Shown here: in pieces, positions 1,924 to 21,605 of the stretch
Layout: each line of letters opens with the position of its first letter
How positions within the stretch are numbered: the stretch's first letter is position 1
Source: Acidobacteriota bacterium
GTDB taxonomy: Bacteria > Acidobacteriota > UBA890 > WLXD01
Length of the DNA stretch: 64,000 bases
Direction of reading: 5' to 3'
Assembly (NCBI GenBank): GCA_963666055.2
Contig: CAXWPH010000012.1
Location: 320,001 to 384,000, forward strand
Position numbers and translations under genes: made by a program
The notes under the pieces: generated by a model
The model's database searches: none
Seen by the model: only the letters and a program-made list of their open reading frames with translations
Told to the model about the DNA's origin: nothing

Positions 1924-2325
1924 TCAATCCTGGACCGACCCCAGCAACGCGTCGGCGGCAGCAGCATCCGACACTTTGAAGACACCGATCGCGAGCCCGT
2001 CGTCCGGTGACGTCGAGGCATAGAAGTACTCGATGTTGATCTTGCTGTCCGAGAGCAGACGGGCGATCCTCGCCAGCTGCCCTGCGTGGCTCCCCAGGGT
2101 CACCACCAACACCTCGATGCTCGTGTGCGCCACGCCGCTGTCGCGGAACACCTCGCGCGCCCGCGGGACATCGTCTACGAGAAGCCGTACAGCGCCGTAT
2201 TCACCCGCTTCGGCCGTCGCCAATGCCAGGATGTTCACGTTCGCCGCTGCCAGCGCTTCACAAAAGTTCGCCAACTCGCCGGGCCGATTCTGCCACCCGA
2301 CGGTCAGTTGTCGTGCAACGGCCAT
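1924..2325 (-). CDS. Tandem ACT-domain protein
   Basis: QLTVGWQNRPGELANFCEALAAANVNI and GQLARIARLLSDSKINIEYFY are two ACT repeats. Confidence 0.85.
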   Translation of the reverse strand: MAVARQLTVGWQNRPGELANFCEALAAANVNILALATAEAGEYGAVRLLVDDVPRAREVFRDSGVAHTSIEVLVVTLGSHAGQLARIARLLSDSKINIEYFYASTSPDDGLAIGVFKVSDAAAADALLGSVQD

Positions 2326-2564
2326 GTGCGTCTCCCAGTGGGTGTGCCACAAGTTTCTTGGTGATGAGCGGTAGATACAGCGCTCGTCGATGGCGGTCAA
2401 GTGCGAGCGCGCAACTTGTAGCTGCTGCTGCCAAGAAAAAAGGGGCTCTCCGTTCGCCTGACAGACGGTCCCGGACCGATCGGGGAACGATACGGTTGCC
2501 GTCCTGCTACTGTCCAGAGTTCCGCCGTCCCGCTTCATCCGCTTCTCATCGCCCCGGCAGCCAC

Positions 2565-3371
2565 GTGACCCTTACTCGCGACCTCGCCCTCGCCGAGACA
2601 ATCGCGCGCGAGGCGTCCGAGATCCTGATGCGCTACTACCGAGGCGACTATCGGGTCGAGGCCAAGGCCGGTGGGGAGCCCGTTACCGAGGCCGACCGCG
2701 CCGCCAACGAGCACATTGTCGCTCGACTGCAGGAGCACTTCCCCGACGATGGCATTCTCGCCGAGGAATCTGCTGACCCGGCGGCGATCGTCGGCAAGCG
2801 GCGCGTTTGGATGGTGGACCCGATGGATGGCACCAAGGAGTTCACTCACCACCTAACCGAGTTCGCCGTGATGATCGGACTAGTGGTGGAGGGCACACCA
2901 GTGCTCGGCGTCGTCGCACAGCCCGCGGAGGAGATTGTTTACCGCGGCATCGTCGGCGAGGGGGCGGAACGCGTGCACCCGGATGGCGTCGATACGATGC
3001 GCGTCGGAACGACCAGCGAGCTCGCCGAGCTGACCTTGATCTGTAGTCGTTCGCACCTCCCCGAGATCGTCGAGCGCATGAAAGACGAGCTCGGCATCTC
3101 GCGCATGCTGCAGTCCGGCAGCGTCGGCCTGAAGATCGGCAAGATCGGTACCGGGGTTTGCGACCTCTATTTGCAGCCGGCATCCGGCACGAAGCTCTGG
3201 GACGCCTGCGCTCCGGAGGCGATTCTGCACGCCGCCGGTGGCCGCCTCACCGACTTCGACGGCCACCCGATCGACTATGACCCTCAGGACATCGTGAATC
3301 GCCGCGGCCTGCTGGGGAGCAACGGCACCCGCCACGACGACTTGGTGCAACGACTGCGCGGCTACTTCTAG
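2565..3371 (+). CDS. cysQ: 3'(2'),5'-bisphosphate nucleotidase CysQ (inositol monophosphatase family)
   Basis: PVTEAD, ILAEE, WMVDPMDGTKEF, CSRSH, GSVGLK, WDACAPEAIL; adjacent to sat/cysC. Confidence 0.85.
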   Translation: MTLTRDLALAETIAREASEILMRYYRGDYRVEAKAGGEPVTEADRAANEHIVARLQEHFPDDGILAEESADPAAIVGKRRVWMVDPMDGTKEFTHHLTEFAVMIGLVVEGTPVLGVVAQPAEEIVYRGIVGEGAERVHPDGVDTMRVGTTSELAELTLICSRSHLPEIVERMKDELGISRMLQSGSVGLKIGKIGTGVCDLYLQPASGTKLWDACAPEAILHAAGGRLTDFDGHPIDYDPQDIVNRRGLLGSNGTRHDDLVQRLRGYF

Positions 3372-3439: not shown

Positions 3440-3481
3440 TTGCATTAGGTTCTAATTGGGTTACGATTAGGACCCAATCAG
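3440..3481 (+). promoter_or_regulatory. Putative promoter with tandem 11-bp operator repeats
   Basis: AT-rich island: TTGCAT-N16-TACGAT overlapped by ATTAGGTTCTA/ATTGGGTTACG/ATTAGGACCCA and inverted repeat ATTGGGT-N10-ACCCAAT, just upstream of an RHH-like gene. Confidence 0.6.
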
Positions 3482-3512
3482 TGCCCTGCTACAGCTCATT
3501 CCGTCGCTGCCC

Positions 3513-3731
3513 ATGCCCGACCGTGTAAGCATCAAGATTCCCCGGCCGCTCTACAATCGGCTGCAGCGGGTCATCGACGGGTCGGGCTTCAGCTCGGCCA
3601 CCGACTTCATCGTCTACGTGCTTCGCGACCTGGTCGGGAGCCTGGAACCGGAGGCATCGTCGTCCTCCGATCTCAGCCAGGACGAGCTCGTGGCGATCCG
3701 CAAGAAGCTAGAAAACCTCGGATACCTCTAA
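3513..3731 (+). CDS. Small CopG/ribbon-helix-helix-like protein with C-terminal LxxLGYL tail
   Basis: VSIKIPRPLYNRLQRVIDGSGFSSATDFIVYVLRD is an RHH pattern; ends IRKKLENLGYL; stop overlaps sat start. Confidence 0.75.
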   Translation: MPDRVSIKIPRPLYNRLQRVIDGSGFSSATDFIVYVLRDLVGSLEPEASSSSDLSQDELVAIRKKLENLGYL

Positions 3732-4900
3732 TGATCAAAGCTCACGGCGGGCGCCTCATCGAGCGCTTCGCATCAGCAACCGGACACACCGAGTGGCTCG
3801 AGCGTATCGACAAGCTCCCTGCCGTCACCATGAACCGCCGAGAAACCTCCGATCTGGAGATGATCGCCACCGGTGCCCTGAGCCCGCTCGAGGGTTTCAT
3901 GGGGCGCGACGACTACGAGCACGTATGCGCCCACGGCCGCTTGCCCGGCGGCCTGCCGTGGACGATACCGATCACGCTGGCGGTCGATTCTTCGACCGCG
4001 GCCGCCGTCGGGATCGGCGACCCGGTGGCGCTCAAGGGGCCCGACGGCACGCTACACGGTGTGCTCGAGTTGGCCGACGTCTACCAGCCCGACAAAGATC
4101 GCGAGGCGCTCCAGGTACTGCTGACGAATGACGACGCGCACCCCGGAGTCGCATACTTACGGTCGACCGGCGACACCTACCTGGGCGGCAGGATCACGCT
4201 GCTCCAGCGCCCGCATCACGCCAGCTTCGAGAGCTCGCGGCTCGATCCGCGCGAAACCCGTGTGCTGTTCAAGGCCAAGGGCTGGAACAGCGTCGCCGCC
4301 TTCCAGACCCGAAACCCGATTCACCGCGCCCACGAGTACCTGCAGAAGTGTGCTCTCGAACTGGTCGACGCACTGTTGATTCATCCGATCATGGGCGAGA
4401 CCAAGTCGGACGATATCCCGGCCGACGTGCGGCTCGAGTGCTACCAAACGCTGCTGCACAACTACTACCCGAAGGCACGCGTTGCACTGTCGATTCTGCC
4501 GGCGGCGATGCGCTATGCCGGCCCTCTTGAGGCCATCTTCCACGCCATCGTAAGAAAGAATTACGGCTGCACGCACTTCATCGTCGGCCGTGACCACGCC
4601 GGCGTCGGCGGCTACTACGGCACCTACGATGCGCACACCATCTTCGAGAAATTCGAAGCGCTCGAGATCGGCATCACGCCGCTCTTCTTCGACCACGCTT
4701 TCTACTGCCACGCTTGCCAGAACATGGCGTCACAGAAGACGTGTCCGCACGACAAGGAACAGCACGTGTTCCTGAGCGGCACGAAAATCCGCGACATGCT
4801 GGCACGCGGTGAAGAGCTGCCAAAGGAATTTACCCGGCCCGAGGTAGCGGAGATCTTGCGTCGTCACTATCAGGGGTCGACTGCCGGCGCCGTGGTGTGA
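3731..4900 (+). CDS. sat: Sulfate adenylyltransferase (ATP sulfurylase, Sat type)
   Basis: LSPLEGFM, FQTRNPIHRAHEY, MRYAGP, HFIVGRDHAG, Zn motif CHAC-x8-CPH, SGTKIR. Confidence 0.96.
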   Translation: MIKAHGGRLIERFASATGHTEWLERIDKLPAVTMNRRETSDLEMIATGALSPLEGFMGRDDYEHVCAHGRLPGGLPWTIPITLAVDSSTAAAVGIGDPVALKGPDGTLHGVLELADVYQPDKDREALQVLLTNDDAHPGVAYLRSTGDTYLGGRITLLQRPHHASFESSRLDPRETRVLFKAKGWNSVAAFQTRNPIHRAHEYLQKCALELVDALLIHPIMGETKSDDIPADVRLECYQTLLHNYYPKARVALSILPAAMRYAGPLEAIFHAIVRKNYGCTHFIVGRDHAGVGGYYGTYDAHTIFEKFEALEIGITPLFFDHAFYCHACQNMASQKTCPHDKEQHVFLSGTKIRDMLARGEELPKEFTRPEVAEILRRHYQGSTAGAVV

Positions 4901-4975
4901 CCGGTCGGTGAGGATACTAGCGCCAGCGCGTCGGCAATCCGGCGCCGGCCGAGGCACCACAAGGAGTTTGCTCAG

Positions 4976-5575
4976 ATGAAGGGCTTCACGCTCTGGTTTA
5001 CAGGGCTTTCGGGCTCCGGCAAGTCGACGCTGGCCACGGCAGTCGAAGAGGTTCTCCTCGAACGCGGTCTGCGGGTCGAGATCCTCGACGGCGACGAGGT
5101 ACGGACGAACCTGTCCAAAGGACTCGGCTTCTCGAAGGAAGACCGCGACACCAACATCCGCCGTATCGGCTACGTCTGTAATCTGCTGAGCCGCAACGGC
5201 GTGGCGGCGGTCTCCGCGGCCATTTCTCCCTATCGAGAGATCCGCGACGAGTTACGCGGATCGATCGAGAACTTCGTCGAGGTCTACGCGCGCTGCAGTA
5301 TCGAAGAGCTCGCACGACGGGATCCGAAGGGGCTATACAAACGAGCCCTGGCAGGTGAAATCCCCAATTTCACAGGCGTTTCCGATCCCTACGAGGAACC
5401 GGTCAACCCCGAGGTCGTCTGCGATACGGAGAAGGAGACGCCGGAGGAGAGCCTGGAAAAGATCGTGCGAAGCCTCGAGCTCATGGGGTACATTCCGCCC
5501 GCCGAGGACCACCACACCAGTCCGGAACAAGAAGAGGCGATCCGCGCACGGCTAGAATCGCTCGGATACCTCTGA
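4976..5575 (+). CDS. cysC: Adenylyl-sulfate (APS) kinase with C-terminal LxxLGYL extension
   Basis: [53 protein letters not shown]; ends [11 protein letters not shown]. Confidence 0.96.
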
Positions 5576-5594
5576 TCGCTCGCCGGGGGCGCCA

Positions 5595-6887
5595 ATGTCG
5601 CGCAGCAAGCGACTCTGTCTGATCGGGCTCGACGGAGTACCGGAACAGCTGCTGCGACGCCTTGCCGACGACGGCGTCATGCCACGCTTGGCGGAGCGCA
5701 TCGCCGGCGCACACCTACGCTCGATGCGCGCCTCATTGCCGGAAATCTCCTCGGTGAGCTGGTCGAGCTTCATGACCGGGGCGGGTCCCAGCGAGCATGG
5801 GATCTACGGCTTCACCGATATCGAGCCTCAGAGCTACGGGCTCACGTTTCCGAGCTTTGCCGATGTGCGCATTCCAACCTTGTGGGACCGGCTCGGCCGC
5901 CGCGGCGTAACCTCGGTAGTGGTGAATCAGCCGGCAACCTATCCAGCTCGCTCGATTCCCGGCGTCATGGTCTCGGGCTTCGTTGCAGTGGATCTCACTC
6001 GCGCGGTCAAGCCACTACGGTGGCTGGGTCCGTTGCGACGCATGAACTACCGCATCGATATCGATACCGCACGCAGCCGCCAGGACCACGATTGGCTCAT
6101 GCGCGACCTGCGGCAGACGCTTCGAACAAGGCGCGAAGCGGTAATGCGGCTCTGGGACGAGGTCGATTGGCGCTTCCTGCAAGTCGTGGTTACCGGCACA
6201 GACCGCCTCTATCACTACCTCTGGGATGCGGTCGAGGACACGCGGCATCCGCGCCACCAGCAAACACTCGACTACCACCACGATGTGGACACCTTGGTGG
6301 GCGAGATATGGGACCGGTTCGCGGCCGAAGAGACCGATCCGGAGTCCTGCTTCTGGATGCTTTCGGACCACGGTTTCTGCGCCATTCGCCAGGAGGTGCA
6401 GCTGAACGCAGCTCTGAAGAACCTGGGCTATTTGACCCTCGGGGCCGAGGCGCCGGTAGATCTGACCTCACTCGAGCCAACGAGCCGAGCGTTCGCGCTG
6501 GATCCGGGGCGCATCTATCTGAATCGATCCGAACGGTTCGGGCGTGGCACCGTCGCCGAAAGCGATGCGCCGGCGCTCAAATCGGAGATCGCCAACGCGA
6601 TCAAAGAGCTGCGGTATGATGGGCAACGGGTCGTCCGCGAGGTGTTCGATGCTGCGGACATCTACGAACAGGGGCCTTGCTCCGCGCGCGGTCCCGACCT
6701 TGTCGCTCTCGCTTTCCCGGGGTTCGACCTCAAGGCGTCCCCGGCGGCGAGTGAGGTATTCGGACGCAGCGACCTCGTGGGTATGCACACGTACGACGAC
6801 GCCTTCCTCTTGACACCCCACCCCATCGAAGGCGACCTCTGGATCGGCGAGATCGCCGCGCATATTGAACAGGAGTACGACAAGTGA
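5595..6887 (+). CDS. AlkP-superfamily (phosphodiesterase/NPP-like) enzyme, predicted cytoplasmic
   Basis: IGLDG, PEISSVSWSSFMTG, TDRLYH, LSDHGF, GMH; no signal peptide. Confidence 0.85.
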   Translation: MSRSKRLCLIGLDGVPEQLLRRLADDGVMPRLAERIAGAHLRSMRASLPEISSVSWSSFMTGAGPSEHGIYGFTDIEPQSYGLTFPSFADVRIPTLWDRLGRRGVTSVVVNQPATYPARSIPGVMVSGFVAVDLTRAVKPLRWLGPLRRMNYRIDIDTARSRQDHDWLMRDLRQTLRTRREAVMRLWDEVDWRFLQVVVTGTDRLYHYLWDAVEDTRHPRHQQTLDYHHDVDTLVGEIWDRFAAEETDPESCFWMLSDHGFCAIRQEVQLNAALKNLGYLTLGAEAPVDLTSLEPTSRAFALDPGRIYLNRSERFGRGTVAESDAPALKSEIANAIKELRYDGQRVVREVFDAADIYEQGPCSARGPDLVALAFPGFDLKASPAASEVFGRSDLVGMHTYDDAFLLTPHPIEGDLWIGEIAAHIEQEYDK

Positions 6888-9004
6888 GCACGCCGTCCCG
6901 GTTCGTGTCGCGCCTCGTCCTGGCCGTGCTGGCCGTCCTGGCGTACCCGCATGTCGCCGATGCCTACGTTGGTCCCGGAGCCGGCTTCGCGTTTATCAGC
7001 AGCTTCCTGGTGCTGTTCTCGACCATTCTGGCAGTCATCGCCTCGTTGCTGATCTGGCCGTTCCGCACCTTGTGGCGGGCGATCACGCGCCGTACGAAGG
7101 TGGCGCCCAAGATCCGGCGCCTCATCGTCGTCGGGTTCGACGGACAGGATCCGCAGTTAACCGACCGCTTCATGGCCGAAGGCAAGCTGCCGAACTTCAA
7201 GAAGCTGGCCGACATGGGCTGCTACAAGCCATTGAAGACAACGTTCCCGTCGATCTCTCCGGTAGCCTGGTCGTCGTTCTCAACCGGCGCTCACCCTGCG
7301 CGGCACAACATCTACGACTTTCTTGACCGCGACCGCCGCACATATTTGCCGGTGTTGTCATCGACCAAGATCGGTTCGGTCGATCGATTCCTGAACCTGG
7401 GACCGTTTCGTATTCCGCTCGAAAAACCGGAGCTCCGACTGCTACGCAAGTCGAAGCCGTTCTGGAGCGTCCTCGGCGAGCACAATATTTGGAGCACCGT
7501 GCTTCGGGTGCCGATCACCTTCCCACCCGACCGGTTCTATGGCGCCCAGCTCTCGGCGATGTGCGTCCCGGACCTTCTCGGAACGCAGGGCACGTTCCTG
7601 CTCTTCACCACCCGGCCCGAGAGCACCAAGTTCAAAGAGGGCGGCCAGCGAGTGCCGGTAACCATGGAGGGCGACCGCGTCACGGGGACCTTGCTGGGAC
7701 CCGAGAATATCCTGCGCAAAGGCAGCCCACCGCTGGAGTTACCGATCGTCGCCGAGCTCGACCGTGGCGCCAGCCGCGCGCGTGTCGCTTTCGGTTCCGA
7801 GAGCGTTGACCTGACCCTCGGCGAGCTTTCCGACTGGGTACCGCTGACGTTTCCTGCGGCGCCCGGCATCAAGGTCCGCGGCATCGGGCGCGTCATGATG
7901 ACCGAGATGAACGGCGACTTCTCCATGTACATGACGCCCATAGCGCTCGACCCGGAGCGACCGGCGATGCCGATTTCCCACCCCAACTACTACTCCGTGT
8001 ACCTGTCGAAGATGCAGGGAAAGTACTCGACGCTAGGGCTTGCCGAAGATACTTGGGCACTGAACGAGAAGGTGATCGACGACCGCCACTTCAAGGAACT
8101 GACGTTCGACATCGACGACGAGCGCAAGGACATGTTTTTCGCCGCGATGGAGCGGTTGCGCCGCGGCTGCTTGGTGTGCGTGTTCGACGCCACCGACCGC
8201 ATCCAGCACATGTTCTGGCGCTACATCGACGAGGGACATCCGGCCGACGATGGCAGCCAGGACGACTGTCGCGACACCATCGAGGAGCTCTACGTACGCA
8301 ACGACAAGCTCGTCGGTGAGGTGTTGGAGAGAGTCACCGAGGATGACCTGCTGATGGTGCTATCAGACCACGGCTTTACCTCATTCCGCCGTGGCCTGAA
8401 CCTCAATCGGTGGCTCCTCGACAACGGCTACCTCGCTCTCAAGGACGGCGCCGACGGCACCACCGAGTGGCTCCGCGCAGTCGACTGGTCGCGTACCAAA
8501 GCCTACTGTCTCGGGCTGTCGGGCATGTTCTTCAACATCAAGGGCCGCGAGTCGCAGGGCATCGTCGAACGCTCTGAAGTCGATTCCCTGAAAGCGGAGA
8601 TCGGCGCCAAGCTCAAAGGGCTGCGCGACGAGGAGAACAACGAGGTGGCCATCGTCGAGGCGTTCGATACCGCCCAGCTTTACCGGGGTCCGTATCTCGA
8701 GAACGCTCCCGAATTCATCATCGGATACAACCGCGGCTACCGTACTTCCTGGGATTGCGCCACCGGCGTAGTCGATGCGCCGCTATTCGAAGACAACGTG
8801 AAGGCGTGGAGTGGCGACCACTGCGTCGACCCACGGCTCGTTCCGGGAGTGTTGTTCTGTAATCGCGCCATCGACGTCGACGATCCTGCGCTCATCGACA
8901 TCGCCCCAACGGCGCTACAGCAGTTCGGTGTCCCGACTCCCAAGTACATGGACGGCCGACCGCTCTTCAAAGAGGGCGCCGAGGCCGATTCGGCTGGGTC
9001 TTGA
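6884..9004 (+). CDS. AlkP-superfamily enzyme with N-terminal signal-like segment and transmembrane anchor
   Basis: HVADA-YVGPGAG then hydrophobic helix and basic patch; VGFDG, PSISPVAWSSFSTG, TDRIQH, LSDHGF, WSGDH. Confidence 0.85.
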   Translation: MSTPSRFVSRLVLAVLAVLAYPHVADAYVGPGAGFAFISSFLVLFSTILAVIASLLIWPFRTLWRAITRRTKVAPKIRRLIVVGFDGQDPQLTDRFMAEGKLPNFKKLADMGCYKPLKTTFPSISPVAWSSFSTGAHPARHNIYDFLDRDRRTYLPVLSSTKIGSVDRFLNLGPFRIPLEKPELRLLRKSKPFWSVLGEHNIWSTVLRVPITFPPDRFYGAQLSAMCVPDLLGTQGTFLLFTTRPESTKFKEGGQRVPVTMEGDRVTGTLLGPENILRKGSPPLELPIVAELDRGASRARVAFGSESVDLTLGELSDWVPLTFPAAPGIKVRGIGRVMMTEMNGDFSMYMTPIALDPERPAMPISHPNYYSVYLSKMQGKYSTLGLAEDTWALNEKVIDDRHFKELTFDIDDERKDMFFAAMERLRRGCLVCVFDATDRIQHMFWRYIDEGHPADDGSQDDCRDTIEELYVRNDKLVGEVLERVTEDDLLMVLSDHGFTSFRRGLNLNRWLLDNGYLALKDGADGTTEWLRAVDWSRTKAYCLGLSGMFFNIKGRESQGIVERSEVDSLKAEIGAKLKGLRDEENNEVAIVEAFDTAQLYRGPYLENAPEFIIGYNRGYRTSWDCATGVVDAPLFEDNVKAWSGDHCVDPRLVPGVLFCNRAIDVDDPALIDIAPTALQQFGVPTPKYMDGRPLFKEGAEADSAGS

Positions 9005-11022
9005 GTGCGCCTCGCGGCGGCCGGCCAACGATGCGATCCGTCATGCTGTGGAGCGTTCTGCTGGTCGTGTCGACGAGCAGCGCCTGCGGCAGCAGCTCGA
9101 GATCAGACGGACCGAACGTCATCGTGCTGGGGATAGACGGCCTCGACTACACCCTGACGCGGGAGCTTATCGACGCCGGCCGCTTGCCGAACTTCAAGCG
9201 GCTGGCGGACTCGGGCGCCTTCGGGCCTCTGGAAACGTCGCTGACTCCGCAGAGTCCGGTGGCCTGGTCGAACTTCATTACCGGCATGGACTCCGGCGGC
9301 CATGGGATCTACGACTTCCTGCATCGTGACCTGGAGCGTGATCCGCCGCTGCCCTTCGGTTGGCCCTATCAGGCGATGACCAAGGAGACTCCGGTGGGCC
9401 GGTCGCTCACGCTTGGCGGCTGGTCCTTCCCTCTCAGCGGCGGCGACATCCAACTGGCGCGATACGGCACACCGTTCTGGCAATTGCTCACCGACAACGG
9501 TATCGACAGCACTCTCATACGCATGCCCGCCAACTTTCCGCCCGTCGGCGCCGGTACCCGCGAGCTCTCGGGCATGGGGACCCCGGACCTCGGCGGCACG
9601 CCCGGTGAGTTCACGTTCTTCTCCACCGATCGCCGCCAATTCATGAAGACCGACGTATCGGGCGGGCATATCTACCCCGCCGACATCATCGATGGCGTGT
9701 TCAACGGAACCCTGTACGCCCTCACCGACAATCCCTTCACGCTGGAAGAGGGCGATGCGGTCGCAGCCGACTTCGAGGTATTCATCGATCCCGATAACCC
9801 CGTTGCAAAGATCGTAATCAACGACCAAGAGCTCATCCTGCAGGAAGGCGAGTGGAGCCCTTGGGTAAGTGCCGACTTTGATCTCGTGCCTTACGTAATG
9901 TCGATATCGGGCTCGGTGCGCTTCTACCTCAAGTCGGTACGTCCGGACTTCGGGCTTTACATCACGCCGATTCAGATCGATCCTCTCAACCCCGGGTCGG
10001 CAATCTCGCACCCGGACTCGTTCGCCACCGAGCTGGGCAACGCCACCGGCCGCTACTACACACAGGAGATGCCACAGGACACCAAGGCGCTCCAGTGGGG
10101 CGTCTTCGACCTCGACGAGTACCTGACGCAGGTCACGCTCACTCGCGCCGAGACGACGGCGCAGTACAAGTATCTCCTCGAGAACTGGACCGGCGGCTTT
10201 CTGTTCTCCTATTTCGGGAGCGCCGACCAAATCTCGCATGTCATGTGGGGCTTGACGCGCGACCCCGAGCACCCTGCATACGTGGCCGAGAGTCACGACC
10301 AATACCGTGACGTCATTCCGAGCTTGTACGAGGAGTTCGACGCGCTGGTCGGCTACACGCTGGATCGCATCGCCGACGATACCCTGTTGGTCGTCATGTC
10401 GGACCACGGGTTTGGCAGCTGGCGCCGATCGTTCAACCTCAATACGTGGCTGCACGATAACGGCTATATGGCACTGCAGCGTCGCACGCGCCTACCGATT
10501 CGGGAGTTCTTCGCCGGCGTCGACTGGGACGCCACTCAGGCGTACAGCGTCGGCATCAGCGCCCTGTACTTGAACATGCGCGGCCGTGAGCCGCAGGGCT
10601 TGGTGGCGCCCGGCGACCGCGACGAGTTACTCCTTCAGCTCGAACAAGATTTGTTGGCGACCGTGGACCCGGCCACCGGTGAGCCGGCCATCACCCGGGT
10701 GTTCATTCGTGAACGCGATTTCCACGACCGCGGCCACTTAGAGATAGGGCCCGACATCATCGTCGGCTACGCACCGCATGTGCGCGGTTCTGGCAACGGC
10801 GCTCTCGGCGGGCTGGCAGCGGAGTTCATTGTCGACAACACCGCCGATTGGTCAGGCGACCACATCTGGGACCCGACGGCGGTTCCGGGTGTGCTGCTGA
10901 CCAACCGCGCGCTGATACGGCCGGCGTCGTCGCTGCAGAACCTGGCAGCATCTCTGCTCGCCGAGTACGGCATCGACGGCTTCCGGGACGGCAGCACCCC
11001 AGTCACGGTTGAGACAAATTGA
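9001..11022 (+). CDS. AlkP-superfamily enzyme, probable lipoprotein (start may be ATG 9031)
   Basis: Signal peptide with SSAC lipobox-like site; LGIDG, PQSPVAWSNFITG, ADQISH, MSDHGF, WSGDH; paralogous to the preceding gene. Confidence 0.82.
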   Translation: MSAPRGGRPTMRSVMLWSVLLVVSTSSACGSSSRSDGPNVIVLGIDGLDYTLTRELIDAGRLPNFKRLADSGAFGPLETSLTPQSPVAWSNFITGMDSGGHGIYDFLHRDLERDPPLPFGWPYQAMTKETPVGRSLTLGGWSFPLSGGDIQLARYGTPFWQLLTDNGIDSTLIRMPANFPPVGAGTRELSGMGTPDLGGTPGEFTFFSTDRRQFMKTDVSGGHIYPADIIDGVFNGTLYALTDNPFTLEEGDAVAADFEVFIDPDNPVAKIVINDQELILQEGEWSPWVSADFDLVPYVMSISGSVRFYLKSVRPDFGLYITPIQIDPLNPGSAISHPDSFATELGNATGRYYTQEMPQDTKALQWGVFDLDEYLTQVTLTRAETTAQYKYLLENWTGGFLFSYFGSADQISHVMWGLTRDPEHPAYVAESHDQYRDVIPSLYEEFDALVGYTLDRIADDTLLVVMSDHGFGSWRRSFNLNTWLHDNGYMALQRRTRLPIREFFAGVDWDATQAYSVGISALYLNMRGREPQGLVAPGDRDELLLQLEQDLLATVDPATGEPAITRVFIRERDFHDRGHLEIGPDIIVGYAPHVRGSGNGALGGLAAEFIVDNTADWSGDHIWDPTAVPGVLLTNRALIRPASSLQNLAASLLAEYGIDGFRDGSTPVTVETN

Positions 11023-11033
11023 CGGTGCAGGCG

Positions 11034-11097
11034 CTAGCTGGCCATGGTGAGAGCGTGGTGGGTCTGGCAAGTGGCACTTGCGGGCAGGGGCAAGAAG
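11034..11097 (+). repeat. Degenerate left-end remnant of the 271-bp MITE-like repeat
   Basis: CTAG-CTGGCCATGGTGAGAGCGTGGTGGGTCTGGC...CTTGCG...GGCAAGAAG aligns with the first ~60 nt of the full copies. Confidence 0.6.
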
Positions 11098-11125
11098 CAA
11101 CGACAACGCTAACAGGAGACGAAGG

Positions 11126-11320
11126 ATGTTCGGAGGCGGCAAGATCAAATTGGACAGTGGCCTACTGAACCGTGTCAGGAAGTATGCGGACATAGCCGGC
11201 TACTCCTCGGTCGAGGAGTTCATTACCTATGCGCTCGAGAAGGAGCTCGCCGTCCTCGAGGAGGCCGACTCCGAGGAAGAGATCCGCAAGAAGCTCCAGG
11301 GGCTCGGCTACATTTCCTGA
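11126..11320 (+). CDS. Second small RHH-like protein with C-terminal LxxLGYI tail
   Basis: KIKLDSGLLNRVRKYADIAGYSSVEEFITYALEKEL...EEEIRKKLQGLGYIS; paralog of 3513..3731; AGGAG SD upstream. Confidence 0.75.
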   Translation: MFGGGKIKLDSGLLNRVRKYADIAGYSSVEEFITYALEKELAVLEEADSEEEIRKKLQGLGYIS

Positions 11321-11341
11321 CCTGACAACGAGCACATCACG

Positions 11342-12181
11342 ATGAACGCCATTCTCGGCGCTGTGAACGGGCTGCTGCGCCCCCTGTTCGACCTGATGCT
11401 GCTGCCCTTTCGGCAGCTACACCCGATGATCGGGCTGACCATCGTGTCGCTGGGGTGCGCGGTGCTCATGCTGCTCGGATACCGCGCCACCTCCAATCAG
11501 CCGGCGGTTGAGCGCGTCAAACGCAGGATCGCCGCCGGCCTGTTCGAGATCCGCCTGTTCAACGACGACATCTTGGCGATCCTACGTGCTCAGGGCGGCA
11601 TCCTGCGCAATAACATGACCTATCTCGGCCTGAACCTGGTGCCGATGGTGTTCATGATGCTGCCGTTTGTCCTGGTCATTGCCCAGCTGCAGTTCCACTA
11701 CGGATATCGAGGCCTGACGGTTGGCGAGCCGACCGTTCTGCAGGTCAGCCTCGGGGACGGACTAGCCGCCAGCAGCGCGCCAGAGGCCGAGGTCACCTTG
11801 CCCGCGGGCCTACGGCTCGACAGCCCGCGGGTGTGGATGCCGGCGCGAAATCAGCTCGCCTGGCGGATCGTCGCCGACAGCCCAGGTGACTTCGAGGTGC
11901 AGATCGAAACCGCCGGCCAACGCGTCACCAAGCGGATCGTGGTATCCGACGCTGTCGTGCGTCGATCGCCCTATAGGCTGAAGCCCGGTTTCGTGAACAC
12001 GCTGCTGTACCCGGCCGAGCCCTCCCTGCCCAGCGACGGGATCGTCATCGAGATCAAGGTCAACTACCCGACACGCGCTGTCGGTCTTTTTGGTTTCGAG
12101 ACCGACTGGCTGATCGTCTTTTTCCTCTTGACGATGTCCCTCGCCTTCGCTCTCAAGGGCCGCTTCGGTGTAACCATCTAG
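11342..12181 (+). CDS. Membrane protein, EMC3/TMCO1/DUF106-like architecture with a soluble beta-rich insert
   Basis: Amphipathic helix-TM1-coiled hairpin (SNQPAVERVKRRI...)-Met-rich TM2 (LVPMVFMMLPF)-insert-DWLIVFFLLTM TM3. Confidence 0.55.
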   Translation: MNAILGAVNGLLRPLFDLMLLPFRQLHPMIGLTIVSLGCAVLMLLGYRATSNQPAVERVKRRIAAGLFEIRLFNDDILAILRAQGGILRNNMTYLGLNLVPMVFMMLPFVLVIAQLQFHYGYRGLTVGEPTVLQVSLGDGLAASSAPEAEVTLPAGLRLDSPRVWMPARNQLAWRIVADSPGDFEVQIETAGQRVTKRIVVSDAVVRRSPYRLKPGFVNTLLYPAEPSLPSDGIVIEIKVNYPTRAVGLFGFETDWLIVFFLLTMSLAFALKGRFGVTI

Positions 12182-12189
12182 TGGCCTGC

Positions 12190-13605
12190 CTACTGCAGGT
12201 AGCCGAGGTCGCGCAAGCGCGCGATGTCTTCCGGCGATACGGTCCGCGCCTGGCGTTCGCTCGGCATGTTCTCTAACAGAGTAGCCAGCACGTCGCGCAT
12301 CTGATCGCGCCGATCGGCGAGCTCTGGCGCGGCGATCAAGTTGACAAGCTCGTACGGGTCACTGCGCAGGTCATAGAACTCGTCGTCGCCCTCTTCGTAG
12401 AGAAGGTACTTGTACTCGATGTCCTGGACCGCGTACCGCTCGCCGGGCTCGTAGTTGCCGCGCTGCTGCCGCCGCATCGAGGCGTCCTCGTAATAGCTGC
12501 GCTCGGCGAAGGCAAACCATCCGGCATCGCGTGGTCGGCCACCGCCCAGATACTGCGTGAGAGATCGGCCCTGCGTGGGCATGATCTGGTTTGGGGTCAG
12601 CTCAAAGATCGCCGCCACCGTCGGCAATACGTCGACATGTTGAACGACGCGCTGGTGTACGCGAATCCCCACCGCGCCGTCAGCGCTCCAGAACAGCAGC
12701 GGTACCCAGAGCTGGGCGTTGTAGATCTGCTTGGAATGCCCGAACCAATCATGAGCGCCGAGTCCCTGACCATGATCCGAGGTGACAATCCAGAGGGCCT
12801 CGTCGTTGAGACCGGTGGCGTCGAAGTGCGCAAACAAGCGCGCCAGCTGCCGGTCCGCATACATGATCTCGGCGTCATAAGCGGCCACATCGTTGCGCAC
12901 GACGCTATCCTCGTCGACGGCCGGAATGCCACGGCTTGCCAGCAGATCACGATACGCCTGCTCGCCATACTCGGCGATCATGCCCTCGACCTCCTCGAGA
13001 ACCTCGTACGGCGGCTGAAGCGGCTTGTGGGGGTCGTACACATGGACCCAGAGAAAGAACCTCTCTCGACCGTCAGCGACCGCCTCGTCGACCCAGGCCA
13101 ATGCACGATCGACAGTGTCGCCCGCGGCGCGGTACAGCTTGCGCCCCCCCTCCGTCTGGCGATCGACCCGATGCTGATCCCAAACCTCGAAACCCTGCCC
13201 AACGTTGCCCCCCAGCGCCGCGTCCGTGCTCACGAACGCCGCCGTCGTGTACCCCGCTGCACCTAGTAGCTCTGCCATCGTCTCGAACTCCTCGTCGAGA
13301 ACCAGACCGTTGTTCTGAACGCGGTGTTGCACTGGATACAGCGACGTGAACAGCGACGCATGCGAAGGCTTCGTGGTCGCGGAATGCGCATAGGCGCGCG
13401 TGAACAGCGTCCCTTCCGCAGCCAGTCGATCCAGGAACGGCGTCGTGGCGATGGGATAACCAAAGCTCGACATGTGGTCGGCGCGCAAGGTATCGACAGT
13501 GATCAGCACCAGTCGCTGCGGTACCGCCATCTCCGGAGTGCTCGCCGAGCAGGCTGCAACCAATCCCGCCAGCGCCATGGTTGCCGCCACGGCCACCCTT
13601 GTCAT
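12190..13605 (-). CDS. Sulfatase-like hydrolase/transferase lipoprotein (no FGly motif) with LxxLGYL tail
   Basis: LVAAC lipobox; ITVDTLRADH, TTKPSHASLFT, HVYDPH, TSDHG, VDVLPT, EFYDLRSDPYE; ends IARLRDLGYLQ. Confidence 0.88.
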   Translation of the reverse strand: MTRVAVAATMALAGLVAACSASTPEMAVPQRLVLITVDTLRADHMSSFGYPIATTPFLDRLAAEGTLFTRAYAHSATTKPSHASLFTSLYPVQHRVQNNGLVLDEEFETMAELLGAAGYTTAAFVSTDAALGGNVGQGFEVWDQHRVDRQTEGGRKLYRAAGDTVDRALAWVDEAVADGRERFFLWVHVYDPHKPLQPPYEVLEEVEGMIAEYGEQAYRDLLASRGIPAVDEDSVVRNDVAAYDAEIMYADRQLARLFAHFDATGLNDEALWIVTSDHGQGLGAHDWFGHSKQIYNAQLWVPLLFWSADGAVGIRVHQRVVQHVDVLPTVAAIFELTPNQIMPTQGRSLTQYLGGGRPRDAGWFAFAERSYYEDASMRRQQRGNYEPGERYAVQDIEYKYLLYEEGDDEFYDLRSDPYELVNLIAAPELADRRDQMRDVLATLLENMPSERQARTVSPEDIARLRDLGYLQ

Positions 13606-14342
13606 TCCCCGTCCTCACCCAAGCTCATCGACTCACCGGAGTTGAGATAGCCATACAGCACCGCCGCAACCACGCCGCCGAGCAGCGGCCCCAGCCAGTA
13701 TACCTAGTGAGAAGTCCAGTACCCGGCCGCGAGCGCCGGCCCGAAGGCGCGCGCCGGGTTGAGCGCGGCGCCCGTCAAGGGACCGCCGACAAGCACGGCG
13801 GCGCCCAGCGTGGCACCGATGACCAAGCCGTGCACATGCTGCGGAGCGCGCCGGGCAGCCGCCATCTGCAGGACTACGAACACCAGCACGAGCGTCAGGA
13901 TCATCTCCAGGAAAACGCCCGTCCCGACCTCCACGCCGGGTCCCAGCGCCGGCGCGCCAAGGTGCACAGGCTGCCACACGTCGGCGCCGAAAGTCGCTGC
14001 CAGCATCAGGCCGGCAACGAGCGCTCCCATTAACTGGGCCGCGAAGTAAGCGTAGGCCCGCGACGGATCGATCGCTCGCACGAGCAGCGCCCCCAACGTT
14101 ACCGCCGGATTGACGTGCGCCCCGGACACGTGTCCGAGCGAGCTGACGATGGCCGCCAACGTCAGCCCCTGAGCCAACGCTATCCCCACGATGCCGACCT
14201 CGCCGCCACTGTAGGAGTCGGTACAGATCGCCGCCGCCGCCATGAATGTGAGGACGAACGTCCCAACACCCTCCGAGACCACGCACACGGCGAGCTCGCG
14301 GCTCATCCGAGCCCCGAGCAGGCGGCGCCAGCTCACCTCCAT
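13602..14342 (-). pseudogene. MIP-family aquaporin interrupted by an in-frame TAG at 13704-13706
   Basis: SGAHVNPAVT and ALNPARAFGP; frame continues H-[TAG]-VYWLGPLLGGVVAAVLY to TGA 13602-13604 overlapping the next start. Confidence 0.8.
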
Positions 14343-18551: not shown

Positions 18552-20048
18552 ATGGGCAATGTCCTCGCGCTCGACCAGGGAACCACCAGCAGCCGTGCGA
18601 TAGTTTTCAACGCCGACGGCCTCACGCTCGGCCAGGCGCAGCAGGAGTTCGAACAGATCTTCCCGCGCCCGGGTTGGGTAGAACACGACCCGTCCGAGAT
18701 ATGGCAAACGCAGCTCGCGGTGGCGCGAGATGCCCTCGCAGCCGCCGGACTAGCGGCGCACGAGGTCGCCGCGATCGGCATCACCAACCAGCGCGAGACC
18801 ACCGTGCTGTGGGACCGTGATACCGGTGAGCCGATCCACAACGCCATTGTCTGGCAGGATCGGCGCACAGCGGAGCGTTGCGACGAGCTTCGATCCGGGT
18901 CGACGGCTACGTTGTTCCGAGAGTGCACGGGGCTGCAGATTGACCCGTACTTCTCCGGTACGAAGGTGGCATGGCTGCTCGATCACGTTGACGGGGCGCG
19001 CCAACGCGCCGAGGCGGGCGAATTGGCGTTCGGCACGGTCGACTCTTGGTTGCTCTGGAACCTGACCGGGGGCCGCGTCCACGCCACCGACGCCAGCAAT
19101 GCCTCGCGCACACTCCTCTTCGACATTCACACGCAGACCTGGCACCCCGAGCTGCTGGCTGCCCTCGACGTGCCCGCCGCGGTACTCCCCACCGTACGCG
19201 ACTCGAGCGAAGTGTACGGCGAAACCGATCCTGGTTTGCTCGGTGGCGCCATTCCGGTGGCCGGCATCGCCGGCGATCAGCAGGCGGCGCTGTTCGGCCA
19301 GATGTGCGTGCAACCCGGCATGTCCAAGAACACCTACGGTACCGGCTGCTTCCTGCTCATGAACACCGGCCCCGAGCCGGTGGCGTCCGACAACGGCCTG
19401 CTCACGACCGTCGCGTGGCGGCTGGGCGGACAGACGACATACGCACTCGAAGGCTCGGTGTTCATCGGCGGAGCGGCGGTGCAATGGCTGCGCGATGGCC
19501 TCGGAATCATCGACTCCGCGTCGGACGTAGAGACGCTGGCAGCGCAAGTGGACGACAGCGGTGATATCTACTGCGTCCCGGCGTTCGCCGGCCTCGGGGC
19601 GCCGCACTGGGATGCCTATGCGCGCGGCGCCGTGCTCGGGATCACCCGCGGCACCAGTGCGGCCCACCTGGCTCGAGCCACCCTCGAAGGAATAGCCCAC
19701 CAGGTCGCCGACGTGCTCGAGGCGATGGTGGCCGACTCCGGGGTGCAGATTCCGGAGCTGCGCGTCGACGGCGGCGCGGCAGCCAACGATCTACTCCTCC
19801 AGATCCAGGCAAACCTCATCGGTGCCCGGGTCGTGCGACCCACGCAGCTCGAATCGACGGCGCTCGGTGCTGCCTACCTAGCGGGGCTAGCGACCGGTGT
19901 ATGGGACAACACCGACGAGCTCGCTCGCCGATGGGGCATCGAATCCCTGTTCGAGCCGCAACTAGCAGATGAGGAGGTGGCCTCGATGCGTTCAGGCTGG
20001 AGCAAAGCGGTGCAACGGTGCCGTGGCTGGGCCCGCGAAGGGCCGTGA
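18552..20048 (+). CDS. glpK: Glycerol kinase
   Basis: [56 protein letters not shown]. Confidence 0.96.
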
Positions 20049-21605
20049 ACCGCGACACGATGCTGCGCCGGCTCGACGAGCCGGGGCGCTGGGACATCGT
20101 CGTTGTGGGAGGCGGAGCCACCGGCCTGGGATGCGCTGTAGACGCTGCAGCGCGCGGCTACCGAACGCTGCTGGTGGAACGCGCCGATTTCGCCTCGGGC
20201 ACCTCGAGCCGCAGTACTAAGCTCGCCCACGGCGGCGTGCGCTATCTGCAGCGCGGCGACGTGACGCTGGTTACCGAGGCGCTCCATGAGCGCGGATTGC
20301 TGCGACGCAACGCACCGCACCTGGTGCACGACCTGCAGTTCGTGGTGCCCACTTACGACTGGTGGGAAGCGCCGTTCTACGGCATCGGCTTGAAGGTCTA
20401 CGACCTGCTGGCGGGCAAGCTCGGCTTCGGCACATCGAGGATCCTGTCCAGGGAGCAGACCATCGAGCGCATCCCGACGATCGAGACCGAGGGGCTACGC
20501 GGCGGTGTCTTGTACTTCGACGGCCAGTTCGACGACGCCAGGCTGGCCATCAACCTGGCGCAGACGGCCGCCAAGCAGGGCGCCGCGCTGCTCAACTACG
20601 CCGCCGTCACCGAGTTGCTGCACCGGGACGGCTTGATCGATGGGGTGGTGGTCGAGGACCTCGAGAGCGCCGGCCGGCGCGAGATCCGCGCCCGCTCGGT
20701 GGTCAACGCCACTGGGGTCTTCGCTGACTCGATCCGCCGCCTCGACGACGCCGCGATAAAGCCGATCATCCGCGCCAGCCAGGGCATACACATCGTGCTC
20801 GATCGCGACTTCCTGCCGGGCGACAGCGCCATCATGGTTCCCCACACCGACGACGGACGGGTGTTGTTCGCCATCCCCTGGCACGGGCGGGTGCTGGTGG
20901 GCACTACCGATACGCCGGTCGAATCGATCGAGTCCGAGCCCCGGCGGTTTTCCCAACGAGGTCGATTTCCTGTTGCGTCATTGCGCCCGTTACTTGACGC
21001 GTGATCCGCAGGCGAGCGACGTGCTCAGTGTCTTCGCTGGCCTACGGCCGCTCGTCCACTCGGGAGACGGTAAGTCGACCGCCGAGATCTCACGCGACCA
21101 TACCGTCAGCGTCTCGCGCTCGGGGCTGGTAACCATTGCTGGCGGCAAATGGACCACCTATCGAAAAATGGCCCAGGACACCATCGACCAGGCCGCCGTA
21201 GTCGGCGGCCTTCCCACGCGCCCCTGCGTTACCAGCGAGATCAACGCGCACGGCTACCGTGCACACGCCGAGCGCTTCGGGAGGCTGGCGCCCTATGGCT
21301 CCGACGCACCGGCGATCGAGCAGCTGGCGGCATCCGATCCCGACTGCGCAGCGCTCCTTCATCCGAGCTTCGAGCACCGTGCCTGTGAGGTCATCTGGGC
21401 AGTGCGCGAGGAAATGGCCCGCACCGTCCACGACGTGCTGGCGCGCCGCACGCGCATGCTGTTGCTGGATGCGCGTGCCAGCATCGAGGCGGCCCCGACG
21501 GTCGCAGCTATTCTGGCGCGCGAGTTGTGCCGCGACGAGCGCTGGGCGCAAGACCAGGTGCTCGAATACGAACACCGGGCGCGCGGCTATCTGGTATCAG
21601 GCTAG
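20045..21605 (+). pseudogene. glpD: FAD-dependent glycerol-3-phosphate dehydrogenase, frameshifted near 20945-20955 (real or sequencing error)
   Basis: VVGGGATG, GTSSRSTKLAHGGVRYL, DDARL in frame 1; EVDFLL...FAGLRPL, SRDH, GGKWTTYRKMA, RRTR in the shifted frame. Confidence 0.85.

Follow-up and report, generated by a model that had tools for sequence, protein, structure and literature searches.

Why would neighbouring proteins of unrelated folds end in the same short peptide? The question is raised by a locus at positions 3513 to 13605 of a 64,000-nucleotide stretch of DNA (here called the window) from an Acidobacteriota bacterium (GenBank assembly GCA_963666055.2, contig CAXWPH010000012.1), whose closest named relatives are Acidobacteriota. 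Two putative ribbon-helix-helix proteins (RHH-1 and RHH-2), the adenosine 5′-phosphosulfate (APS) kinase CysC and a sulfatase-fold enzyme all end in an L-x-x-L-G-Y tail there, accompanied by three tail-less enzymes of the alkaline phosphatase (AlkP) fold, designated AlkP-1, AlkP-2 and AlkP-3, and by a membrane protein. Our best explanation, to which we give a probability of roughly 0.45, is that the tail helix is a tethered covalent carrier arm, whose tyrosine passes a chemical group between AlkP-fold active sites. For the operon in question, sulfate from 3′-phosphoadenosine 5′-phosphosulfate (PAPS) is the probable cargo. Little is understood of how bacteria transfer sulfate to molecules of the envelope, which lie outside the cytoplasm and away from the site of PAPS synthesis.

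A conserved tail on three folds

The four tails (3708-3725, 5552-5569 and 11294-11311 on the plus strand; 12199-12216 on the minus strand) are genuine and exceed chance expectation. The open reading frame (ORF) translations contain all four C-termini quoted in the original prediction, together with an internal SLELMGYI in CysC, and AlkP-1, AlkP-2 and AlkP-3 carry no terminal tail, as had been stated. Across the genome, LxxLGY lies at most five residues from the stop in 21 of 67,261 stop-to-stop ORFs, while eight control motifs reach counts of 0 to 5; ORF ends with LxxLGY number 21 versus 1 with LxxLGF. The tail is also conserved, being present in 120/120 RHH-1 homologues among the matches listed; it occurs in 0/120 homologues of AlkP-1. 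RHH-1 and RHH-2 are paralogous (hhalign 96.6%, E 5e-10), and the four proteins therefore represent three independent folds, in agreement with the earlier claim.

In CysC (4976-5575, plus strand; Pfam, NCBIfam), the internal LELMGYI (5474-5491) is probably the native last helix of the APS kinase, followed by a linker and the added tail. The tail profile aligns weakly with the C-terminal helix of the solved APS kinase 7yq0 (E 0.95), and the tail of CysD aligns with the native end of Pseudomonas CysD. These native-end alignments hint at the origin of the motif. A search of the PDB with the tail profile gave nothing significant except 4v91_O (E 0.0065), a match of doubtful meaning.

Several other views of the tail were rejected. 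PEP-CTERM-type sorting signals consist of a motif followed by a membrane helix and a basic cluster at the C-terminus of exported proteins; the tail is followed by no membrane helix, has internal copies and cytoplasmic carriers, and is found inside tandem proteins. A TPR-adaptor role was dropped as a general account because many tailed proteins occur without TPR, and two apparent tails on TPR proteins are chance internal matches. Three apparent stand-alone tail ORFs of this genome, considered as micropeptides, are instead tail-keeping remnants of broken threonine-type sulfatase-fold genes (G000:C2:362032, C2:386227 and C15:1271676). No published description of the tail or of the module described below was found in the literature searched, which covered few subscription journals.

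The tail marks threonine-type sulfatase-fold enzymes

The tailed sulfatase-like gene (12190-13605) lies on the minus strand, opposite to the rest of the locus, and encodes a lipoprotein-type enzyme with the tail in cis, a candidate client transferase. Its sulfatase fold is clear from comparison with 6hr5 (VIA, Z 41.3, root-mean-square deviation 2.4, 353 residues aligned), and it has T-K-P-S-H in place of the C/S-x-P-x-R motif of the formylglycine (S1) sulfatases. Among 39 sulfatase- or AlkP-fold ORFs of the genome that could be aligned at the nucleophile (9 more failed to align), the tail ends the catalytic domain of 18/18 full-length threonine-type proteins versus 0/11 cysteine-type (C-x-P-x-R) sulfatases. 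All 18 tailed proteins have threonine at the nucleophile position, and none has arginine at +4. Six threonine ORFs have no tail: two belong to the tailed family but are broken, and the remaining four carry different motifs. A frameshifted threonine-type copy is found in locus L041 (C12:20088-22656), and several members of this subfamily run into Ser/Thr kinase genes.

As the window enzyme is one of 18 such proteins spread over the genome, the tail is not specific to this locus. Lipoprotein or membrane signals are recognizable by eye on 16/18 of them, and sulfate-activation genes are found among 0 of the 39 neighbours that were scanned. A tag that assembles one sulfate-activation complex is not supported by this result, nor by the export signals on most tailed proteins of the genome (by eye), by tandem two-domain proteins, which often have one tail per domain, or by the presence of tails where a genome lacks APS kinase.

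The association extends beyond this genome. With true sulfatases counted in, a profile of the sulfatase-like family finds 80,614 cluster representatives at E≤1e-30. Of 203 related domains from all fetched sequences, 195 are threonine domains, and 176 of these are tailed; the tail tyrosine column over the 203 aligned domains contains 181 tyrosines, 22 gaps and not a single phenylalanine. Among the 150 best representatives, 12 tandem proteins carry a tail after each of their two domains, and other multi-domain matches show the strict tail pattern once or not at all. Covariation between tail and body in the 203 domains gave no signal (best z 3.0; shallow alignment). In the AlphaFold model of the window enzyme, the predicted local distance difference test (pLDDT) score is 67 for the linker, 89 for the tail helix and 74 for the last four residues. 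Choline sulfatase aligns with this model up to residues 442-443, a range that extends to the tail, while the alignments of most sulfatases end near residue 425.

Functional information on such proteins comes from Halobacterium salinarum, where the sulfatase-fold proteins Agl30 and Agl31 are described, on the basis of deletion and heterologous expression, as needed for N-glycan sulfation (PMC11980604). The ends of these proteins can be read from primers: the reverse cloning primers given in that paper translate to HLEDLGYL (Agl30), LEELGYT (Agl31) and KELGYIE (a third paralogue, VNG1063H). A term search of the accessible text of the paper returned no mention of PAPS or of a donor, and no discussion of the tail was found there (PMC11980604).

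Tail-less AlkP enzymes and their tail donors

If tailed enzymes carry the helix in cis, how do the tail-less enzymes of the locus relate to it? AlkP-1 (5595-6887, plus strand; PF01663) is an NPP-like (nucleotide pyrophosphatase/phosphodiesterase-like) enzyme without an export signal, with Ser52 at the nucleophile position, and is a candidate loader. AlkP-1, AlkP-2 and AlkP-3 all contain a two-metal ligand set (Asp, D..H, DH and His) and a serine as presumed hydroxyl nucleophile, with roles as usual in NPP and AlkP enzymes. In AlkP-1, residues S52, D203, H207, D258, H259 and H398 are invariant across 119 homologues; no solved relative was found at E≤0.01.

Over all loci, a tailed CysC or CysD adjoins AlkP-1 in 15/17 cases and an untailed one in 0/11 (a count that includes the duplicate locus pairs L001/L045 and L138/L148). 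One further AlkP family has no tail in locus L023, where it adjoins RHH-1, and ends in a fused LGYIS tail in L146. The pairing and this alternation between cis and trans favour one part of the original prediction, namely that the tail is portable and given in trans to tail-less AlkP enzymes. A possible covalent role of the tyrosine, the predicted two-sided topology and the Oxa1 fold, all described below, lie outside that earlier interpretation.

A fixed module with an Oxa1-fold membrane protein

Downstream of AlkP-1, the genes for AlkP-2, AlkP-3, RHH-2 and the membrane protein keep their order and form a fixed module. Among the 48 metagenome loci of at least 3 kb (32 further loci are shorter), a tailed RHH-2 lies directly 5′ of the membrane gene in 47, and the 48th ends at a contig end. 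A tailed sulfatase-fold gene is present in 17/48.

AlkP-2 (6884-9004, plus strand) has a signal peptide, a mature N-terminus Y-V-G-P-G-A-G (Tyr at 6965-6967), one membrane helix and a basic patch, and its metal ligands and Ser125 are present. In 31/31 of the homologue N-termini listed, Y[IV]GPGAG precedes a hydrophobic segment and a basic patch, and a signal-peptidase-type site nearly always comes before it (two N-termini have a short leader only). From this arrangement, the catalytic domain is predicted to be cytoplasmic and one tyrosine to lie outside. AlkP-3 (9001-11022, plus strand) is a paralogue of AlkP-2 with a lipoprotein-type signal, and its relatives have lipoprotein, Sec or twin-arginine signals (all judged by eye). 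The catalytic domain of AlkP-2 is therefore predicted at the inner face, and AlkP-3 outside the inner membrane. Lone AlkP-3-like proteins are also exported; most have a two-helix membrane hairpin within the domain, and their genes sit among housekeeping genes. Single exported AlkP-2/3-like enzymes at L143:8526-10742, L144:8484-10784, L145:461-2857 and in L163-L177 are possible lipid-fed loaders. The genomes that encode such lone enzymes lack the Oxa1-fold gene, and often APS kinase as well.

RHH-2 (11126-11320, plus strand) most likely starts at the ATG at 11126, 3′ of a ribosome-binding site, giving a protein of 64 residues that ends in LGYIS. No other small conserved cytoplasmic partner that has an invariant phenol was found, and RHH-2 is a candidate soluble carrier. 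The membrane protein (11342-12181, plus strand) carries an Ig-like insert. As single sequences, RHH-1, RHH-2 and this protein have no Pfam match. The profile of the membrane protein matches MJ0480 (PDB 5c8j) at E 2e-9, and 41/124 family members match PF01956 at E≤0.1. Its model (pLDDT 92) has the expected helix order and the Ig-like insert, which was the only part matched by Foldseek. The top VIA row for the model is 7tut chain 8 (Z 8.6, root-mean-square deviation 4.1, 136 residues aligned over residues 22-279), a 177-residue chain of the multipass translocon, which we take to be TMCO1; its Z score is tied within 1 with coiled-coil matches. Judged by the homology to MJ0480, the protein belongs to the DUF106 (EMC3/TMCO1-like) branch of the Oxa1 superfamily, with a predicted core of three transmembrane helices (TM1-TM3) and a cytoplasmic coiled coil.

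Candidate front ends of the module across the phylum

What feeds this module? In a survey of 150 genomes of the phylum, the membrane gene, and hence the module, is found in 43. The counts treat a weak membrane-gene match in G006 as absent and include G023, which has no membrane gene, tail match or APS kinase and one AlkP-3-like match. As the sampled genomes are kin, co-occurrence tests (Fisher values) overstate the associations, and incomplete assemblies blur absences. APS kinase is present in 43/43 module genomes versus 55/107 others, and 35/43 module genomes lack a PF01507 match. Tail matches occur in 77/94 genomes with an AlkP-3-like gene versus 13/56 without.

A small P-loop sulfotransferase with a PAPS motif (GLPRSGTS) is found in 31/43 module genomes versus 4/37 others. 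In this genome, it is encoded on another contig (L178:5276-5890, minus strand; G000:C2:146272-147174). All 21 other matches of the family in the fetched loci fall in module loci, and its nearest solved relatives are phenol and tyrosine sulfotransferases, all of them weak matches (E 0.001-0.02). In 16/43 module genomes, no more than 10 kb separates this gene from the membrane gene. AlkP-1 is found in none of these 16 genomes versus 19/27 of the other module genomes. The simplest reading is that AlkP-1, together with the tail of CysC or CysD, may do the same job as the PAPS sulfotransferase: loading sulfate on the first acceptor of the module.

RHH-1 and its probable operator

Besides RHH-2, the locus encodes a second tailed ribbon-helix-helix protein, RHH-1 (3513-3731, plus strand). 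Four 11-bp repeat units (3444-3487), detected by lag autocorrelation of upstream regions, form a probable RHH-1 operator over the likely promoter, where no match to the sigma-70 consensus was found. The 90 bases upstream of 21 distinct RHH-1 genes share the 11-bp periodicity (lag-11 z=10.8, lag-22 z=6.4), while a control region shows codon periodicity only. With this array at its own promoter, RHH-1 is probably a true repressor: a real DNA-binding regulator of its own operon, whose tail may act as a sensor. Its assignment to the ribbon-helix-helix family is tentative, with a match to NikR at E 0.097 and no Pfam match; source records name its homologues CopG/Arc/MetJ. The original prediction took the ribbon-helix-helix proteins for adaptors or sensors rather than simple repressors. 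For RHH-1, the array points to a regulator that binds DNA; for RHH-2, a carrier or adaptor fits better.

No wider RHH-1 regulon emerged: apart from the RHH-1 promoter, which served to build the operator matrix, the genome contains no strong site for this matrix, and the scores of 22 candidate upstream regions mostly resemble those of random regions. RHH-1 loci occur in several bacterial phyla and one archaeon, with sat, cysC or cysDN in 23/25. The archaeal locus (L024:9623-12272, Hadarchaeota) has a pair of tailed RHH genes together with a tailed CysD and CysN, and lacks an AlkP gene. In three loci (L014:7201-9965, L016:10168-12072 and L020:10208-11596), genes for an ABC binding protein and permease, or for a sodium:sulfate symporter, lie directly 3′ of RHH-1 and probably serve sulfate uptake. 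Planctomycete loci (L003:11559-12590, L008:5961-6893, L010, L013 and L019) have an untailed CysC and no AlkP-1; here, a short tail-less threonine-type sulfatase-fold protein is encoded between RHH-1 and CysC.

A proposed carrier arm for sulfate

How might these parts work together? Sequence and comparison establish the tail, its tie to threonine-type sulfatase-fold domains, the occurrence of tail-less AlkP enzymes together with tail donors, the Oxa1 fold, and the genomic association with APS kinase; from these we infer all chemical steps of the following relay. Initially, Sat (ATP sulfurylase; 3731-4900, plus strand; Pfam and NCBIfam over cut-off) and CysC would make PAPS. The product 3′-phosphoadenosine 5′-phosphate (PAP) would be cleared by the CysQ-like PAP phosphatase encoded upstream (2223-3371, plus strand, as listed, with the true start probably later; Pfam Inositol_P over residues 121-376; best NCBIfam match CysQ, under its cut-off). 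Pfam and NCBIfam identify this gene, Sat, CysC, three PF01663 proteins and one sulfatase-fold protein. A front end would then load sulfate onto the tail tyrosine, which here may be AlkP-1 acting with the tail of CysC or CysD, and in other genomes the small P-loop PAPS sulfotransferase. RHH-2 would carry the sulfate to AlkP-2 at the inner face, and the Oxa1-fold protein may be the site of crossing, where the invariant tyrosine at the N-terminus of AlkP-2 might hold the group. At the outer face, AlkP-3 would load the tails of many exported threonine-type enzymes, after which each tail may swing the group to the threonine of its own enzyme and from there to an envelope acceptor. RHH-1 would act as repressor of the operon, with its L-x-x-L-G-Y tail possibly sensing the state of the pathway. 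Where a genome lacks APS kinase, the arm would have a different load, probably a phosphoester.

The carrier arm is favoured because it accounts for the invariant hydroxyl, for the presence of one arm per catalytic domain, for stand-alone arms on RHH scaffolds, for the swap between AlkP-1 and the sulfotransferase, and for the second tyrosine outside. The complete scheme is a more doubtful proposition than the arm itself: a protein-borne sulfate relay across the inner membrane on tyrosines and Ser/Thr sulfo-enzymes, with a repurposed Oxa1-family groove, exported 'sulfatase-like' sulfotransferases with an LxxLGY swinging arm, and RHH-1 reading the loading of its own arm.

Several observations weigh against the carrier arm or against parts of the relay. 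Two-metal NPP-type sites favour phosphoesters. Classical sulfotransferases are present in 34/43 module genomes, and one is encoded in this genome, so APS kinase has other consumers; the module as sole consumer of PAPS was dropped for this reason. Three module genomes have neither AlkP-1 nor the small sulfotransferase at the thresholds used, and 14/43 have at most one tail match. Conversely, tails are found in 48/107 genomes without the membrane gene, and the idea that tailed enzymes require the Oxa1-fold protein was abandoned accordingly. Of 22 genomes with neither the membrane gene nor APS kinase that have one AlkP-3-like gene, 19 carry tails (up to 15), which means that the tail is not a sulfate-only tag. 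In a further 13 genomes, tails occur although nothing AlkP-3-like is matched at E≤1e-25; G007, G025 and G041 among them have 8-11 tail matches. Agl30 and Agl31 are reported to function with C-terminal tags in another haloarchaeon (PMC11980604).

Alternative explanations

The main rival, which develops the idea of the original prediction and which we consider a possible but less probable account than the carrier arm, is that the tail acts non-covalently, as a lid or docking helix that completes the AlkP-fold active site. Threonine-type enzymes would have it in cis, and tail-less ones would receive it in trans from CysC, CysD or RHH proteins; in this way it would channel PAPS and switch the enzymes on. 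A lid is consistent with one tail per domain in tandem proteins, with the alternation between L146 and L023, and with the pairing of AlkP-1 with CysC and CysD tails. It also agrees with the confident tail helix in the AlphaFold model: a pLDDT of 89 beside a linker of 67 is expected of a helix packed on its own domain, which a lid explains equally well. The extended alignment of choline sulfatase, to model residues 442-443 rather than about 425, points the same way, as the C-terminal region of another protomer is described as forming part of the active-site tunnel in that enzyme (PMC5870055). Against a lid, the tyrosine is never phenylalanine, and one consensus is used by different AlkP families. 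A lid also does not explain why AlkP-1 and the PAPS sulfotransferase exclude each other, or why AlkP-2 has a second invariant tyrosine at its outer N-terminus.

Sulfate might instead cross on a lipid or small phenol scrambled by the Oxa1-fold protein, with the tails merely docking partners on loader enzymes. We regard this as improbable: no lipid-synthesis gene was recognized as a fixed part of the module (among partly annotated neighbours), and the two invariant tyrosines would be left unexplained, even though single AlkP-3-like enzymes with a membrane hairpin occur without the module, haloarchaeal sulfation takes place on a lipid-linked glycan, and insertases are reported to scramble lipids (10.1101/2023.09.01.555937). 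Least probable of all is that the AlkP-fold proteins are ordinary phosphoester hydrolases or transferases, that the tail is a generic structural end helix and that the link to sulfate genes is loose co-location. The NPP-type metal ligands, the tails in CysC-free genomes and the similar helix that natively ends APS kinase and CysD would suit such a view; it sits poorly with APS kinase in all 43 module genomes, with a sulfotransferase that adjoins the module, with a tail added to a kinase and to RHH proteins, and with the tail on Agl30 and Agl31, which are proven sulfotransferases as far as the accessible text shows.

Neighbouring genes

Two further genes of the window may be altered. An ORF of 212 residues at 13704-14342 (minus strand) encodes a MIP-family channel that spans profile positions 11-204 of 222 and is possibly shortened. 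At 20018-21605 (plus strand), a glycerol-3-phosphate dehydrogenase-like gene (by eye), 3′ of a glycerol kinase-like gene, is split across two overlapping frames.

Comparison with known systems

If the tail is a carrier arm, it would provide a sequence marker that separates transferases from hydrolases in the very large 'sulfatase' group, and a bacterial Oxa1/EMC3-type protein would gain a role in group transfer. In its helix order (amphipathic helix, TM1, coiled coil, TM2, TM3), this protein resembles MJ0480/Ylp1, TMCO1 and EMC3. Unlike these, it is bacterial, has an Ig-like insert and is tied to one enzyme module, which suggests a function other than general membrane-protein insertion.

Agl30 and Agl31 share the sulfatase fold and the LxxLGY end (as read from the primers), and differ from the window locus in that they are reported to sit in an N-glycosylation cluster (PMC11980604). 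Choline sulfatase and the phosphonate monoester hydrolases have the same fold, and their C-terminal region is described as reaching the active site of another protomer (PMC5870055). They are, as far as described there, formylglycine hydrolases with other tail sequences, which have not been moved onto unrelated folds.

The closest parallels to the proposed chemistry are found elsewhere. PatA/PatB is described as an acetyl-tyrosine shuttle (PMC12148441). In the MBOAT-SGNH tyrosine acyl shuttles (PatA/PatB, DltX), the tyrosine of a short conserved terminal motif takes up a group at a membrane step supplied from the cytoplasm and delivers it to an enzyme outside that has a hydroxyl nucleophile, according to the accessible text of that work (PMC12148441), as is proposed here. 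The systems differ in the group (sulfate, in our proposal), in the folds (AlkP, RHH and Oxa1) and in the motif, and no MBOAT or SGNH partner is found among the proteins of the operon (Pfam, NCBIfam). In caprazamycin biosynthesis, a PAPS sulfotransferase is reported to load a phenolic shuttle that a second enzyme unloads (Cpz8/Cpz4; PMC4257720, citing Tang 2013), a likeness to the proposed relay. There, a small molecule serves as the shuttle, an arylsulfate sulfotransferase does the unloading, and no passage across a membrane is described (PMC4257720). The proposed carrier would work like the PatA/DltX and caprazamycin shuttles, while being a member of neither group.

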